Origin: Candidatus Hodarchaeaceae archaeon | Lineage (GTDB): Archaea > Hadarchaeota > Hadarchaeia > Hadarchaeales > Hadarchaeaceae | NCBI GenBank assembly: GCA_030016755.1 | Contig: JASEJC010000002.1 | Location: 1-45,182 of the forward strand | Direction: 5' to 3' | DNA length: 45,182 nucleotides | Part shown: positions 1,495 through 20,590 of the stretch, one piece after another | Layout of the letters: every line of letters begins with the position of its first letter | Numbering within the stretch: the first letter of the stretch is position 1 | Program-made: the position numbers and the translations under genes | The notes under the pieces: model-generated | Seen by the model: the letters and a program-made list of their open reading frames with translations, nothing else | Database searches by the model: none | What the model was told of the DNA's origin: nothing

Positions 1495-1705
1495 GGGCCC
1501 GCTTTACCTCTTCGTCTGTGGCTCCTTTCGAAATATCTAATTTTTTGTCAGTGGGTTCGAGGTGTGAAATGTTACAACGCCTTCGCTTTACCCCCAGCCC
1601 GCTCACGATTACGTAGGTGGAGTCCAACACCTCAACGATGACGCATCGCTTGCCGGCCTCATGCCCCGCAAGCTTTACGCAAACTCGTCCGACCTCCATG
1701 ACCAT
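1478..1705 (-). CDS. rpl14e: 50S ribosomal protein eL14
   Basis: VGRVCVKLAGHEAGKRCVIV...GVKRRRCNISHLEPTDKKLDISKGATDEEV is the archaeal L14e signature. Confidence 0.85.
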   Translation of the reverse strand: MVMEVGRVCVKLAGHEAGKRCVIVEVLDSTYVIVSGLGVKRRRCNISHLEPTDKKLDISKGATDEEVKRALEAAG

Positions 1706-1706
1706 C

Positions 1707-2243
1707 CTAAGATCTCCTCTTCATTGCAACGGCGACCGCAGTTTCCAATATCCGCACCATCTCGCGAATAGAAAGGCGCCCCGTGTTCAGCACGAGATCG
1801 AAGGGTGAATGGTCGTTCACGTCGATGCCATAAAATTTCTGAAAGCGCTTTATCTCGCTTCGCTCCCGCGCCACGGTTTCCCTCATGACCTCCCTAAGCC
1901 TGCGTTTCTCACGTCGGGCTATCCGCATGACCCTCACTTTAAGAGGAGCGGTAAGCAAAATTTTCACGTCGGCCTTCTTTGCCATCCACCCCGCGAGGCG
2001 AGCGTCGATGAGTACCCTGTCGTTCCTCGCGGCATCTGCGGTTCGGCGATCTATCATTCGATCTATGTTCGGGTGGCGTTCCGCGTATTTTGAAAACTCA
2101 TCGAGTGCCATCCCGCGCTCCTCTGCGAGTTGTCTGAACATGGAACCAGCGCAAACATACTGTAACCTAAATTTTTTGACAAGGGTTTTAGCAGCTGTGG
2201 TCTTGCCCGCGCCGTGCAAGCCGCTTATCGCGACGACGACCAT
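1707..2243 (-). CDS. cmk: cytidylate kinase, archaeal type
   Basis: P-loop ISGLHGAGKTT and QYVCAGSMFRQLAEERGMALDEFSKYAERHPNIDRMIDRR. It sits in the conserved position between eL14 and eL34. Confidence 0.85.
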   Translation of the reverse strand: MVVVAISGLHGAGKTTAAKTLVKKFRLQYVCAGSMFRQLAEERGMALDEFSKYAERHPNIDRMIDRRTADAARNDRVLIDARLAGWMAKKADVKILLTAPLKVRVMRIARREKRRLREVMRETVARERSEIKRFQKFYGIDVNDHSPFDLVLNTGRLSIREMVRILETAVAVAMKRRS

Positions 2244-2247
2244 TTTC

Positions 2248-2514
2248 TCACACCCTCGCTGCTTCCTTTATCACTTGCCGCGTGCAGGCCGGACAGAGGT
2301 ATCCACCAAACGGCCGATTTGGCATGCGGGAACTCCGGGGGAGGGACTGCAGCCTGCTTGCTCTTACCCAAGGAACGCCCCCCAGCGGACGACCACACGA
2401 AGCACACTTGGGCTTGCCCGAACGTTTTTCTTTATAGTGAACCAACACCCGCCCGCCAGGGGTATGCACGCGCCTCCCGCCGTAGCTCTTGGTCCTGTAT
2501 CTCCTCGCCGGCAT
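2248..2514 (-). CDS. rpl34e: 50S ribosomal protein eL34
   Basis: MPARRYRTKSYGGRRVHTPGGRVLVHYKEKRSGKPKCASCGRPLGGVP, including the zinc-ribbon cysteines. Confidence 0.85.
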   Translation of the reverse strand: MPARRYRTKSYGGRRVHTPGGRVLVHYKEKRSGKPKCASCGRPLGGVPWVRASRLQSLPRSSRMPNRPFGGYLCPACTRQVIKEAARV

Positions 2515-2515
2515 G

Positions 2516-3334
2516 TTATTCCCTGATCAATATTTTTCGGAAGATCTGGGAGAATCCTATGTAGGTGAGGAAGTACCACCACCCTATGCCGAACGCGACC
2601 AACCTACCAAAAACTGGAAGGTCTATGGTAAAAGGCAACCAAGCGACGACCCACCCGCTGTACACCGCACCCAAGAGGTTCCAAATGAGTATCAGGGGGA
2701 TGAAATAGAAGATGGCAGGTTTAAACGTTTGTGAGAGCACCTGTCCTTGGAGTTTGGCTATTTCACCTTGGCGCTGCTGAATTTTGTGTAGCTGCTTCAT
2801 GTCTCGTTTGCTTCGGGCATCGCGGAGCTCCTTCTGAAACTCCGCAATCTTTGCCTTGTTTTCCCTCACCAGATCCCAGTTTACCACGCGCTTGTTCACC
2901 AGCGTTATGAGCAAAGCCATCACCACCCCCACACCCAAAATGATGAACATAGAGTACGTGTAGATCGGGGATAAGGAGACGCCTATCAAGTTCGCGGCTC
3001 GAGAAACGTCCGCCCTTAATACAAATATATTTTCCTCGACGGGAGTTTGGGCAAGGGAGCTGAAGGCTTGGGTAATTTTGGTGTCGAGCTGGTTATCAAT
3101 ATTTTCGACGCGGGAACTGAAGTTACTCTCGTATACCGTTGATGCGTTTGATACAGCTGTCGAAGCGCCACCACTATCCCCTCTTCTGAGCGATGAAATG
3201 GCCGAATCGAGCTTGCCCAGTAAGTCTTTCAGCGCTGCTTGGTCATTTCCCCCTTGGGCTTGAACGGTCCCCACGCTGAGGATGGGTACGGTCAATGTGG
3301 CCATGATAAACAAGACGATTATTTTTTTGCGCAC
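2516..3334 (-). CDS. DUF106/EMC3-TMCO1-like membrane protein insertase homolog with an N-terminal signal peptide and extra domain
   Basis: The C-terminal 150 aa has a TM helix, the coiled coil NKAKIAEFQKELRDARSKRDMKQLHKIQQRQGEIAKLQGQ, and two more TM helices. The gene occupies the conserved slot after adk. The N-terminus MRKKIIVLFIMATLTVPILSVGTVQAQG looks like a signal peptide. Confidence 0.6.
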   Translation of the reverse strand: MRKKIIVLFIMATLTVPILSVGTVQAQGGNDQAALKDLLGKLDSAISSLRRGDSGGASTAVSNASTVYESNFSSRVENIDNQLDTKITQAFSSLAQTPVEENIFVLRADVSRAANLIGVSLSPIYTYSMFIILGVGVVMALLITLVNKRVVNWDLVRENKAKIAEFQKELRDARSKRDMKQLHKIQQRQGEIAKLQGQVLSQTFKPAIFYFIPLILIWNLLGAVYSGWVVAWLPFTIDLPVFGRLVAFGIGWWYFLTYIGFSQIFRKILIRE

Positions 3335-17763: not shown

Positions 17764-19248
17764 CTATCCCTTGGCGACACCCATTGGTACCAATCTTGCT
17801 ACCTTTCTGGCGATTCCCGCTTTGTGAGATATTTCGCAGACCTTGTCAACGCTTTTATAGGCCTGCGGACTTTCCTCTGATATCACCGATAGCTTGGCCG
17901 CCCGCACTATAATGCCTCTCGACTCCAGCTCTCTTTTGACAACATCGCCTCGAAAACGATTGAGCGCCGCGGTGCGGCTTAGGTGGCGTCCCGCCCCGTG
18001 GGCTGTCGAGGCAAAGGTCTCCTGCATCGCCTGCTCGGTTCCCACGAGCACGTAGGAGGCGGTGCCCATGTCGCCCGGGATGAGCACGGGCTGGCCAACG
18101 CTACGATAGATTGGCGGGATATCTGGGTTCCCAGGTCCAAACGCCCGTGTGGCCCCCTTCCGGTGTACCACGACTTTCCGGTCCTCGCCATCGATGCGGT
18201 GTGTTTCAAGTTTTGCGATGTTGTGTGCGACATCATATATAATGTGGAGGTTCAAGCTCTCAGCATCGCGTCCGAAAACTTGTTCGAAGCTCTGCCTGAC
18301 CCAGTGTACGATCATCTGCCGGTTCGCCCAAGCGTAATTGGCCGCGCACGCCATCGCTGAAAAGTAGGCCTGCCCCTCCGGTGACGTGAATGGAACGTTC
18401 ACCAACTCTCGATCTGGCAACATGATTTTGTATTGGTGAACAGCTCGCTCCATCGTACGAAGGTAGTCGGAGCAGACTTGGTGGCCCAGCCCTCTGGAAC
18501 CTGTATGAATCATCACGGTGACCTGCCCTTCGTAGTCAATGCCGAATTTGCGCGCGACCTCGGGCTCGTAAATTTTGTCTACAACTTGAACCTCGAGGAA
18601 GTGATTTCCGGACCCTAGGCTGCCAAGCTGTGGGAAGCCACGGTGCTTCGCCTCCGCGCTCACTTTTTTAGCGTCCGCGCCCGCCATGCAGCCCCCCTCC
18701 TCGAGCCTGTCCAAGTCCTCGCGCCAACCGAAGCCGTTCTCGACAGCCCACCGCGCGCCATGCTCGAGCACATCGTCAAGCTGGGCGGGTGTTAGCTTAA
18801 CGTGGCCCGTGCTGCCCAAGCCGGATGGCACGTTCCTGAACAACGCCTCGACTATCTCGCGCAGCTTGGGTTCGACGTCCTTTTTTTCCATATTTGTCTG
18901 CAACAGCCGCACGCCGCAGTTGATGTCGTACCCCACCCCCCCAGGGCTTATGACGCCGGTCTCAGCGTCGGTCGCTGCGACCCCGCCGATCGGGAACCCT
19001 TAGCCCGAACATGCTCAAGCATGTATCGTATAGCCCTGATGCCCGTCGGGGAGTGTTATCGCGTACTTGTAGATGCCCTGGAGGAAAGCCACATTTGCGG
19101 TCTGCTCGAGGGTCAGGTCCCTGCGCATCTCGTTCAGCATCTCAGCGTCAGCATAAACCCTCGCAGGCACGCGCATACCACGCTTATAATCTTGTGGGAT
19201 TTCCCATCGCAGCTCGTCAATTTGCTTTATCTTGCCAGTCCACGGCAT
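17764..19248 (-). CDS. rtcB: RNA-splicing ligase RtcB, interrupted. Proposed join of exon 1 (19248..19030) and exon 2 (18999..17764) gives 484 aa.
   Basis: ORF 19015..19248 ends ...[16 protein letters not shown] then TIHA*. In the same frame, after ACSG*, the sequence continues [33 protein letters not shown] into ORF 17764..18936. That ORF carries [29 protein letters not shown] and GVAKG. Removing 19000..19029 restores the canonical PDGHQGYGFPIGG motif and a typical RtcB length. Confidence 0.85.
19000..19029 (-). other. putative bulge-helix-bulge (relaxed HBh') mini-intron in the rtcB mRNA, 30 nt
   Basis: RNA: ACGAUACAUGCUUGAGCAUGUUCGGGCUAA. Both junctions read GGCU followed by a 3-nt bulge (GGCU-AU|A and GGCU-AA|G). 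The two GGCU copies can pair with each other (2 GC plus 2 GU pairs). The interior forms CGA/UCG plus ACAUGC/GCAUGU stems around a UUGA loop. Length is a multiple of 3 and it contains TGA and TAA in frame. Confidence 0.55.
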
Positions 19249-19309: not shown

Positions 19310-19735
19310 CTAAATATCAACAACCGCTTGCACCGAGCAACGGTCTTTCTCGTGCTTGATTTCCATCATATGATAGGTCATCGCTTTGACTGCAGTTCGT
19401 TCCGGGTGCCTAGCGGGGTCGAACGGTTCTCCCTTAACTTGGGCCTTGAGCTTTAGGCCGCCCTTGGTTTTAGATATCGCCACGTCGAACTTTGACATCA
19501 CCAAGTTCCGAGCGTCGTGAAGATAAAGCAGCCGGTCGAGCCAATCATAGAGCAGCGCCCCCTCGTCCTCGGCCTCCAGCTCGACCTCGACCTCCTCACG
19601 CGGCTCGACCTTGTTTGTATCGACCATCACCTCGAACAACGCGAGCGCGGCGTTCTCGAAGGCCTCAGCTAAGTCACGGCCGTAGGCCTTAAAGCCGATG
19701 TCCGATGGGTGCTCGACCCACTCGAAGCGCTTCAT
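19310..19735 (-). CDS. archease (RtcB activator)
   Basis: MKRFEWVEHPSDIGFKAYGRDLAEAFENAALALFEVMVD...VKAMTYHMMEI...AVVDI. Start trimmed to the ATG at 19733-19735 by comparison with known archease N-termini. Confidence 0.85.
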   Translation of the reverse strand: MKRFEWVEHPSDIGFKAYGRDLAEAFENAALALFEVMVDTNKVEPREEVEVELEAEDEGALLYDWLDRLLYLHDARNLVMSKFDVAISKTKGGLKLKAQVKGEPFDPARHPERTAVKAMTYHMMEIKHEKDRCSVQAVVDI

Positions 19736-19790
19736 TTTATCACTGGTGTTAAATCTGGTTGACACTTGTTAAGAGTTTCTAACGCTCGTC

Positions 19791-19798
19791 CATATAAC
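19791..19798 (-). promoter_or_regulatory. putative TATA box for the archease-rtcB transcription unit
   Basis: The minus strand reads GTTATATG, about 55-60 nt upstream of the archease ATG and directly downstream of tRNA-Ser(UGA). Confidence 0.3.
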
Positions 19799-19817
19799 AT
19801 GCCAATTTTTAGTGATT

Positions 19818-19905
19818 TGGCGCCGGGGAAGGGATTCGAACCCTTGAGGCCCAAAGGGCCACACGCTCTCAAGGCGTGCGCCTTACCTGGCTTGGCTACC
19901 CCGGC
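19818..19905 (-). tRNA. tRNA-Ser(UGA), 88 nt, CCA encoded
   Basis: Reverse complement is GCCGGGGTAGCCAAGCCAGGTAAGGCGCACGCCTTGAGAGCGTGTGGCCCTTTGGGCCTCAAGGGTTCGAATCCCTTCCCCGGCGCCA. Anticodon loop is CTTGAGA, with a long variable arm and discriminator G. Confidence 0.9.
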
Positions 19906-19927
19906 ATCAAATAATCCTCGCTCCAAA

Positions 19928-19935
19928 GTTATATG
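19928..19935 (-). promoter_or_regulatory. putative TATA box for tRNA-Ser(UGA)
   Basis: The minus strand reads CATATAAC, centred about 26 nt upstream of the mature 5' end. Confidence 0.35.
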
Positions 19936-20011
19936 CCCTTTCCGCTCTTGGCGCGACTTTTCCTTACCACAAGGTTTTTGTCTGCCGAAGAAACACGTTT
20001 CTGGGATCAAC

Positions 20012-20590
20012 GTGGTGGTCCTTTCCGGAGACCAGATCCGCGAATACCTGAAGATGGGCAAGATTGTAATTGAACCGTTTGACGAAAAGCTTGTGGGGCC
20101 CAGCCAAGTCGACCTCTGTCTAGGGAGCAAGTTCAGAGTCTTCAAGGAGAGCGGGGTTGTCGATCCCTTTGATCAAAAATCAATCGAACGGAACACCGAA
20201 CTCGTCGACACCAAGGGAAAACCATTCGTCCTACAACCCAAGCAGCTCGTGCTGGGGGTGACGCGTGAGCGAGTCGCGGTACCTAACGACCTAGTTGCCT
20301 CTATCGAGGGCAGGTCATCGGTTGCCCGGATGGGTGTCTTCATTCACATCTCCTCGGGTCATGTAAATCCTGGCTCGGGGGTGAAAGGAGCATTCCCGGT
20401 GACGCTGGAAATCCTGAACATGAACCCGTCCCCAGTCAAGCTCTACCCAGGGATGAGGATATGTCAGCTCCTATTTTACACGATGGACCGAGCCGTGCGC
20501 AAGGGCTACGACGAACTCCAGGGGAAGTACGCGGGGAAGGTCGAGCCCTCAGAGAGCATGGCGTTCAAGGATAATAGGGGTACGCCTTAG
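20012..20590 (+). CDS. dcd: dCTP deaminase
   Basis: LSGDQIREYLKMGKIVIEPFDEKLVGPSQVDLCLG, EGRSSVARMGVFIH and ICQLLF motifs. Start trimmed to the GTG at 20012 because the track ORF's 5' extension runs through the tRNA-Ser gene. Confidence 0.85.
   Translation: MVVLSGDQIREYLKMGKIVIEPFDEKLVGPSQVDLCLGSKFRVFKESGVVDPFDQKSIERNTELVDTKGKPFVLQPKQLVLGVTRERVAVPNDLVASIEGRSSVARMGVFIHISSGHVNPGSGVKGAFPVTLEILNMNPSPVKLYPGMRICQLLFYTMDRAVRKGYDELQGKYAGKVEPSESMAFKDNRGTP

Follow-up and report, generated by a model that had tools for sequence, protein, structure and literature searches.

Whether an enzyme can still be made from a gene whose reading frame is closed twice within an invariant active-site motif is the question raised by rtcB, the RNA ligase gene of Candidatus Hodarchaeaceae archaeon (Hadarchaeota; GenBank assembly GCA_030016755.1). 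The gene occupies 19248..17764 on the minus strand of a stretch of 45,182 nucleotides (nt), positions 1 to 45,182 of contig JASEJC010000002.1, the whole of which was analysed and is called the window below. The interruption is a 30-nt insert which, in our assessment, is very probably a mini-intron of the bulge-helix-bulge (BHB) type in the rtcB pre-mRNA, and whose splicing we infer from its sequence and predicted structure. The initial annotation of this DNA had read the insert in the same way, and that reading has since drawn support from twenty distinct inserts at the same site in relatives, from covariation in the intron hairpin, from agreement with a known cleavage rule and from a second insertion site in the same gene.

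The interrupted rtcB gene and its relatives

Straight translation of rtcB meets two stop codons, both within the 30 nt at 19029..19000. The minus strand here reads ...CCC GAC GGG CAT CAG GGC TAT / ACG ATA CAT GCT TGA GCA TGT TCG GGC TAA / GGG TTC CCG ATC GGC GGG..., with slashes at the ends of the insert, which is in frame and contains TGA at 19017-19015 and TAA at 19002-19000; the upstream open reading frame (ORF; 19248..19015, minus strand) accordingly encodes 77 amino acids (aa). Removal of the 30 nt yields a 484-aa product that matches the Pfam family RtcB (PF01139, E=1.8e-178) over profile positions 1-426 of 426, and that aligns with Pyrococcus horikoshii RtcB (1UC2/4DWQ; E=5e-216, residues 7-484 against 5-481) without a gap through the junction, including a stretch of 16 identical residues. 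The predicted spliced mRNA would read ...CAGGGCUAU/GGGUUC... at this point, that is UAU/GGG, encoding GHQGY-GFPIGG. The initial annotation had placed the insert inside PDGHQGY/GFPIGG, with both stops in frame and a 484-aa protein on deletion; the sequence, the full-length family match and the gapless alignment bear this out to the exact coordinate.

The closest RtcB genes all belong to Hadarchaeota (Hadesarchaea) metagenome-assembled genomes (MAGs), with amino-acid identity up to 89%, and a check proposed with the initial annotation, namely whether close relatives share the insert, returned a positive answer. (L-numbers denote DNA loci of relatives and P-numbers protein-database entries; additional site-1 DNA came from one metagenome pattern scan and four contig look-ups.) Inserts interrupt the identical codon boundary, which we call site 1, in the Hadarchaeota reference genomes L002 (30 nt), L012, L026 and L033 (29 nt each) and in L114, another Hadarchaeales genome (30 nt). 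These five reference genomes are joined by more than 15 metagenome contigs, and the intron is present in about 5 of some 37 Hadarchaeota species representatives. Counted over Hadarchaeota and a lineage resembling Aenigmatarchaeota, this boundary carries 20 different inserts, of which eleven measure 30 nt, eight 29 nt and one 26 nt; the nine shorter versions shift the frame, the 30-nt versions contain stops, and read-through is possible in none. Every match to the 77-aa stub in a protein search was itself short, and in about 23 clusters GHQGY gives way to a variable junk tail, the result of shifted-frame read-through or an early stop. The window's own stub belongs to a cluster of 9 members, which lie on more than 20 contigs drawn from JGI, Logan and ENA.

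In-frame stops in an essential gene of metagenome-derived sequence might ordinarily be put down to a pseudogene or to an assembly or sequencing error. The same interruption recurs in many independent assemblies from different projects, and is therefore not an assembly artefact. When the spliced coding sequence of the window is compared with four relatives, the ratio of nonsynonymous to synonymous substitution (dN/dS) is 0.04-0.055 and no further lesion occurs in 484 codons, which together argue that the gene is not a pseudogene. The insert sequences differ while their structure is kept, and the best 80 RtcB loci include no additional rtcB from any of the four reference assemblies with an intron. 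Decay or artefact is on these grounds barely credible.

Public annotation misreads these genes systematically: exon 1 appears as a protein of its own, 76-113 aa long and named 'hypothetical protein' or a short 'RtcB' (stubs P0002-P0025), and the remainder as a truncated RtcB; L123, for example, is given as 108 aa and 382 aa in place of one rtcB. Split enzymes exist in archaea and gene callers do record two ORFs, so that the ligase could be imagined to assemble from two products, an N-terminal peptide of 77 aa and a C-terminal protein with its own start, with the insert as an intercistronic spacer. There is no start codon at or near GFPIGG, however, and the first in-frame start, GTG at 18936, would cost 21 conserved residues; the break also falls inside an invariant active-site motif. 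The helix and bulge geometry, the hairpin covariation, the synonymous constraint on the exons and the codon-splitting second site, all described below, would be left unexplained, and we regard a split gene as very improbable.

The distribution of the mini-intron is patchy. At site 1, 78 of 80 other diverse archaeal rtcB loci are contiguous. On the RtcB tree the carriers are interleaved with intronless sisters (L093 with L001, L026 with L003 and L004, L100 with L027 and L006), and carriers L033, L012 and L123 lie in other clades. Outside Hadarchaeota, L091 and L105 encode a divergent RtcB (PDMHFGY/GFPIGG) with closest reference relatives in Aenigmatarchaeota (84% and 78%), and in the Aenigmatarchaeota MAG L124 rtcB contains an intein besides the two introns. 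The junction-pattern scans also gave chance matches, which were inspected and set aside: L083-L086, L088, L090 and L113 are bacterial (L084 being a glycosidase gene), and L095, L097, L098, L101, L104, L109 and L110 are not rtcB. Two side observations concern individual loci. Intronless L003 and L004, the sisters of L026, keep CAG GGC TAT/GGG or GGA TTC, the exon bases that form the central helix in carriers, as would fit a recent precise loss of the intron; and one Hadarchaeota contig (L025:1-5) starts exactly at GFPIGG, the intron position, where assembly may have broken at the intron hairpin.

Predicted RNA structure and its conservation

Unconstrained minimum free energy (MFE) folding of 19070..18970 gave -39.8 kcal/mol (z=-2.67) and a structure with two 3-nt bulges on opposite strands and a 4-bp helix between them, the defining arrangement of a BHB motif. 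The central helix pairs GGCU with GGCU (as G.U, G-C, C-G and U.G), the bulges AUA and AAG each lie 3' of their own strand, and a 9-bp hairpin within the intron directly adjoins the intron-side strand (Table 1). On either side, the boundary needed to restore the protein comes directly after bulge nucleotide 2, so that the cleavage rule of the crenarchaeal cbf5 intron gives exactly GHQGY/GFPIGG here, and GGVG(Y/F)DINC at the second site. Beyond the central helix, the exons pair with each other through 3 bp (AUC/GGU) and a further 13 bp (19054-19042 with 18994-18980). The initial annotation had drawn the GGCU/GGCU helix, the AU/A and AA/G bulges and the hairpin CGA(U)ACAUGC-UUGA-GCAUGUUCG, all of which reappear in the unconstrained fold. 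It had seen no convincing outer exon-exon helix and had called the motif relaxed for that reason; the fold contains such a helix, and the description as relaxed stands on account of a 2-nt offset. The outer helix is not flush with the central helix, as the strict hBHBh' form demands, and as modelled the motif is a relaxed BHB, as in cbf5 and many non-canonical tRNA introns.

This structure is widely shared. When 22 distinct flanked sequences were each folded alone without constraint, the GGCU/GGCU helix was present in the MFE of 21, the 5' bulge was unpaired in 21 and the 3' bulge in 19. A covariance model (CM) was built on the proposed structure, 25 copies (22 distinct) were realigned to it and pairs were counted: 92.6% of cells in this CM-guided alignment are standard pairs, and controls in which the partners are displaced by 1-3 columns reach no more than 55%. 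Covariation scores 0.215 where shuffles give 0.123+-0.009 (0/500), and both-side changes occupy 31 cells against 9.7+-2.7. Compensatory double changes occur in 7 of the 9 hairpin pairs, with 90% of cells paired across the 22 distinct sequences, and the pair adjoining the 5' bulge is C-G in 15, U-A in 6 and G-C in 1. The central helix is paired throughout (100%) and the outer helix in 92% of cells. Nine alleles found via their proteins, and the window itself, also have GGC-TAT and GGCUA. Variation at the core is slight: L120 has AG/G at the 3' bulge, and L124 has GGCC on the intron strand, changing one G.U to G-C with pairing kept. Compensatory change, which the initial annotation had proposed to look for in relatives, was thus found in the hairpin; in the GGCU/GGCU pairs the change seen is the G.U to G-C of L124. 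In 22 of 22 sequences the sense strand has the more stable fold (-36.2 against -28.1 kcal/mol for the antisense), a sign of RNA pairing with G.U rather than of a palindrome in the DNA.

A few codons downstream of site 1, several relatives have a second, independent mini-intron site. It interrupts the codon for Tyr or Phe in GGVG(Y/F)DINC, which we take to adjoin the metal ligands Asp95 and Cys98 in Pyrococcus RtcB numbering. It is occupied in L115, L117, L091 and L124 by inserts of unrelated sequence with a common geometry and common AU/N and AA/N bulges. The codon is split in phase 1, and the predicted junction rebuilds the conserved Tyr or Phe codon in all four lineages; the BHB register is the MFE in two of the four cases. 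Boundaries for the second insert of L091 that would give GGVG-I-DINC were rejected for want of BHB geometry, which a shift of one nucleotide supplies together with the canonical Phe. Another candidate, P0030/L118, was dropped because the locus has a plain 1-nt frameshift at GGIGFDINCG and no insert (L118:2700-2780; also L119); that frameshift may be a sequencing error or real, and is unrelated to introns.

Inteins occupy the same region of the gene. In L026 an in-frame element of about 463 aa at DIN/C (about 1618-3000) has Intein_splicing, Hint and LAGLIDADG_3 domains, and inteins at DIN/C are also present in L027, L031, L032, L037, L091, L093, L100, L114 and L124. Intein and mini-intron(s) occur together in L026, L093, L100, L114, L091 and L124, and in L091/L105 and L124 the site-1 intron, the site-2 intron and the intein fall within about 100 nt of coding sequence, all in active-site motifs. 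The window's rtcB has neither a second-site intron nor an intein. Reading its 30-nt insert as an intein was rejected: the insert contains two stops, inserts of relatives are 26 or 29 nt long, and there is no in-frame Hint domain.

An inverted repeat set inside a 6-nt direct repeat resembles a miniature element, and rtcB is a hot spot for mobile elements such as inteins; the insert might on that account be DNA of a mobile or repeat type, a palindrome that duplicated its GGGCTA target site on insertion and is tolerated or inactivating, and its structure a feature of the DNA. The base that follows the second repeat copy is, however, A or G and not the T of a true duplication, the pairing depends on G.U and is specific to one strand, and the hairpin drifts with compensation and has no conserved terminal repeat. 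The host gene is under strong purifying selection, and the site-2 inserts lack such a repeat yet adopt the same RNA geometry. We consider a DNA element of this kind highly unlikely as an explanation of the structure, while noting that a mobile origin is compatible with present-day splicing of the element.

Codon choice in the exons was compared between 21 intron-bearing and 34 intronless alleles encoding the same PDGHQGY-GFPIGG peptides. The Gly codon in the central helix is GGC in 21/21 intron-bearing alleles (13/34 intronless) and the Tyr codon is TAT in 21/21 (17/34); Asp is GAT in 20/21 (17/34), the first Gly is GGG in 20/21 (19/34), the second Pro is CCC in 18/21 (12/34), and Ile is ATA in 0/21 (11/34). 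The mean energy of the exon-exon duplex is -25.8 kcal/mol in intron-bearing and -18.2 kcal/mol in intronless alleles (p=8.5e-9, Mann-Whitney). A carrier's duplex is stronger than that of its nearest intronless neighbour in 13 of 14 comparisons and, since carriers are scattered on the RtcB tree, the bias does not derive from shared ancestry. In the window GAC replaces GAU and, with a shift of register, CCG correspondingly replaces CCC. The outer helix is therefore under selection at synonymous sites in intron-bearing alleles only and, by analogy with the tRNA body in tRNA splicing, would hold both mRNA halves for ligation.

The coding sequence might also be recovered with the RNA uncut, if ribosomes were to take off at GGC-UAU, skip the hairpin, land at GGC-UAA and resume at GGG. 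The insert lies between copies of a direct repeat, GGGCUA(U/A), there is a stable hairpin after the site of take-off, and the second insert of L091 and L124 begins GGA-UAG, resembling the take-off site of phage T4 gene 60. The repeat is nevertheless explained by a self-complementary central helix (GGCU/GGCU) with two bulges. For peptidyl-tRNA-Tyr the landing codon, UAA (UAG in L120), is non-cognate, and the codon after take-off is a sense codon (ACG, UCG, AUG or GGC) and never a stop in any version. At site 2 the Tyr or Phe codon is assembled from U and AC or UC across the insert, where a hop cannot resume in mid-codon, and no matching landing codon is present. Finally, the codon bias of the outer helix would have no role in hopping. 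Very little probability attaches to programmed bypassing.

Proposed splicing and comparison with known systems

If the insert is a BHB intron, EndA, the tRNA-splicing endonuclease, would cut after the second nucleotide of each bulge, so that exon 1 would end in a 2',3'-cyclic phosphate and exon 2 begin with a 5'-OH, and the exon-exon helix would keep the halves of the cut mRNA together. Pre-existing RtcB, with the archease encoded just upstream, would join them at UAU/GGG into the message for the 484-aa ligase, the unspliced mRNA giving only the 77-aa stub. Synthesis of the ligase would in this way depend on endonuclease and ligase protein already in the cell and, were RtcB the only suitable ligase, existing RtcB would be a precondition for any new RtcB. 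What sets the case apart is that the intron-bearing message encodes the very ligase required to seal it. As a doubtful extension, the intron might be more than a passenger, forming an autocatalytic, protein-inherited loop that couples RtcB production to the state of the splicing machinery, with the exon-exon helix as a built-in ligation splint; on the same tentative footing, its occurrence at one and the same codon in Hadarchaeota and in a DPANN lineage would make the element family ancient or horizontally mobile.

Several points weigh against an mRNA intron. A bare BHB-like motif is appreciably frequent by chance: a tightened scan of the window (AU/N and AA/N or AG/N bulges, a 4-bp central helix and a hairpin of at least 5 bp) gave 12 matches against 8.8+-2.6 in Markov-shuffled controls, and when the hairpin is set to at least 9 bp about 0.43 matches are expected per window. 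The significance of the rtcB site comes from its exact match to the protein-restoring boundaries, from conservation with covariation and from a second site under the same rule. In structure, the outer helix is offset from the central helix by the 2-nt AG at 19037-19036 opposite the 3' bulge, which places the 3' site in a 2x3 internal loop instead of a clean 3-nt bulge. Both terminal pairs of the central helix are G.U, and the helix is invariant within Hadarchaeota, hence offers no covariation there. In L091, the most divergent site-1 carrier, the BHB register is not the MFE, and at site 2 it lies within 1.2-1.6 kcal/mol of the MFE in the other two of four cases. Part of the site-1 sample was fetched with patterns that fix GGCTAT...GGCTAA. 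The exact 484-aa spliced protein was not found on look-up in the protein collection, a divergent second ligase gene may lie outside the 45-kb window, and the need for a ligase to ligate its own mRNA is a bootstrapping dependence. The four alternatives set out above, taken jointly, retain a small probability.

The tightened scan recovered the rtcB site and found no second interrupted gene in the window. Its sole comparably strong match, a 10-bp hairpin at 20350-20386 on the plus strand (TCAC AT/C ... GTGA AA/G), lies inside an intact dCTP-deaminase ORF (19766-20590) whose frame its removal would break, and was treated as chance or an ordinary mRNA hairpin. A generic search for BHB motifs in the window, in which ORF rescue was tested only crudely, gave hundreds of matches and was uninformative.

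The nearest precedent is the cbf5 intron of Crenarchaeota, which is 16-44 bp long, lies inside the catalytic Asp codon, has an unconventional BHB and shows patchy gain and loss (PMC2738675); cutting by EndA has been demonstrated, and cleavage is predicted between bulge nucleotides 2 and 3 (Yokobori 2009, PMC2738675). The rtcB inserts resemble it in being mini-introns too short to encode anything (18-30 nt), in lying within or adjoining an active-site codon of an RNA-processing enzyme, in their relaxed BHB-like motif with a predicted cut between the same bulge nucleotides, and in a patchy phylogenetic distribution implying gains and losses. They differ in that the host gene is the ligase of the same pathway, that one gene has two intron sites, sometimes with an intein as well, and that a long exon-exon helix is kept by selection at synonymous sites. 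Splicing of cbf5 has been demonstrated experimentally, whereas that of rtcB is deduced from comparative evidence. The carriers are also not Crenarchaeota, belonging instead to Hadarchaeota and an Aenigmatarchaeota-like DPANN lineage. The cbf5 pre-mRNA intron was reportedly also treated by Watanabe in 2002 and by Yoshinari in 2006.

Hadesarchaea and several DPANN lineages have an alpha4 EndA with an L3 loop, which is linked to more disrupted tRNA genes (Kaneta et al. 2018, PMC5829648). The carrier groups fit these lineages, their EndA being taken here from the literature alone, and the enzyme reported for them is accordingly a homotetramer with the L3 loop, in contrast to the heterotetramer that goes with cbf5. 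The BHB introns of archaeal tRNA and rRNA share the order of helix, 3-nt bulge, 4-bp helix, 3-nt bulge and helix, and presumably the same EndA followed by RtcB and archease. The substrate in rtcB differs in being an mRNA without a tRNA body, for which the outer helix appears to substitute.

In eukaryotes, HAC1 and XBP1 mRNAs are cleaved by IRE1 at twin 7-nt loops and ligated by Trl1 or RtcB, as a stress-regulated switch. The likeness extends to a short mRNA intron, a protein endonuclease, 2',3'-cyclic phosphate and 5'-OH ends, sealing by RtcB in metazoa, and an intron removal that alters the reading frame or product; the endonuclease and its motif differ, and in Hadarchaeota the spliced mRNA would encode RtcB itself. 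RtcB inteins, such as that of P. horikoshii, are likewise intervening elements in a conserved active-site motif of the gene, but are in frame, about 460 aa long, equipped with Hint and LAGLIDADG domains and removed from the protein, whereas a 30-nt insert with stops (or a frameshift in relatives) must be removed from the RNA. The T4 gene 60 bypass offers a short untranslated gap with a hairpin in coding sequence and a short flanking repeat; in rtcB, by contrast, the codons of take-off and landing are not cognate, take-off is not followed by a stop, and the second site interrupts a codon.

Neither an intron in rtcB nor a BHB intron in any protein-coding gene other than cbf5 was found reported in the literature, where coverage of journals is incomplete and an unseen report is possible; the initial annotation had likewise been aware of none in rtcB. 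A 2025 paper on archaeal splicing endonucleases cites only cbf5 papers for archaeal pre-mRNA introns (PMC12397907). If the present interpretation is true, rtcB would be a second gene family with archaeal mRNA introns, in two other phyla, at two sites and in dozens of natural variants, and archaeal mRNA splicing would be neither a one-off nor tied to the crenarchaeal heterotetrameric endonuclease. A self-referential system of this kind raises questions of bootstrapping, feedback and the persistence or spread of introns. The variants, with hairpin swaps, G.U to G-C exchange in the central helix, AA/G against AG/G bulges and tuning of the exon helix, would form a natural mutagenesis series for what an mRNA BHB substrate needs. 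There is a practical consequence too, in that pipelines split rtcB into a 'hypothetical' 77-110-aa stub and a truncated RtcB, and an essential function can then look absent or broken in uncultured lineages.

Feature coordinates and gene neighbourhood

Table 1. Coordinates of the rtcB features in the window and of site-2 inserts in relatives (slashes mark predicted cleavage or the junction).
Feature	Position	Strand	Details
rtcB exon 1 (Met1-Tyr73)	19030..19248	-	end ...CAG GGC TAT; aligned with P. horikoshii RtcB residues 5-70
Putative 30-nt BHB-type mini-intron	19000..19029	-	ACGAUACAUGCUUGAGCAUGUUCGGGCUAA; 20 distinct versions at same site in relatives; CM match 92.1 bits
rtcB exon 2 (Gly74-Gly484 and stop)	17764..18999	-	start GGG TTC CCG ATC (GFPIGG)
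Central helix (4 bp), exon-side strand	19032..19035	-	GGCU = Gly GGC and U of Tyr UAU
Central helix, intron-side strand	19002..19005	-	GGCU; GGCC in Aenigmatarchaeota L124
5' bulge A-U/A	19029..19031	-	unpaired in MFE; predicted 5' cleavage 19030/19029
3' bulge A-A/G	18999..19001	-	unpaired in MFE; predicted 3' cleavage 19000/18999; faces unpaired AG 19037-19036
Inner hairpin	19006..19028	-	CGA(U)ACAUGC - UUGA - GCAUGUUCG; stacked directly on central helix
Outer helix, 5' strand	19038..19054	-	codons for L-P-D-G-H: ACUCCCCGACGGG c AUC
Outer helix, 3' strand	18980..18998	-	codons for G-F-P-I-G-G-V: GGU u CCCGaUCGGcGGGGU
Archease gene	19310..19765	-	directly upstream of rtcB; Pfam PF01951 E=7.5e-49
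Site-2 insert, L115/L116	L115:1379-1406		UUGG, AU/U, CGGUGGGG-GUUAA-CCCCGCCG, CCAA, AA/A; 28 nt; predicted GGA-UAC-GAU (G-Y-D)
Site-2 insert, L117	L117:1262-1289		layout of L115; hairpin G-C to C-G swap and G-C to G.U; 28 nt; predicted GGA-UAC-GAC (G-Y-D)
Site-2 insert, L091/L105	L091:227-247		UCGG, AU/A, GGCUC-UUAA-GAGCC, CUGA, AA/U; 21 nt; predicted GGA-UUC-GAC (G-F-D)
Site-2 insert, L124	L124:1137-1154		UCGG, AU/A, GGC-CUUAA-GCC, CCGA, AA/U; 18 nt; predicted GGA-UUC-GAC (G-F-D)

Archease is a known cofactor of RtcB, and the archease-rtcB order of the window is repeated in L115 and L121. Downstream of rtcB lie genes for a PF02598 RNA methyltransferase and ribosomal protein L3, and a tRNA-Ser(UGA) gene lies farther upstream than archease. 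A tRNA scan of 37 related loci returned intronless tRNA-Ser genes only, and no tRNA intron with which to compare. In L122 a free-standing 317-aa LAGLIDADG_3 ORF (72-1025) stands directly upstream of the intron-bearing rtcB, in the usual place of archease, and may be a homing-endonuclease gene or part of another intein. In the site-2 carriers L115 (587-1054), L116 and L117 (517-927), a PIN_3-domain gene lies between archease and rtcB.

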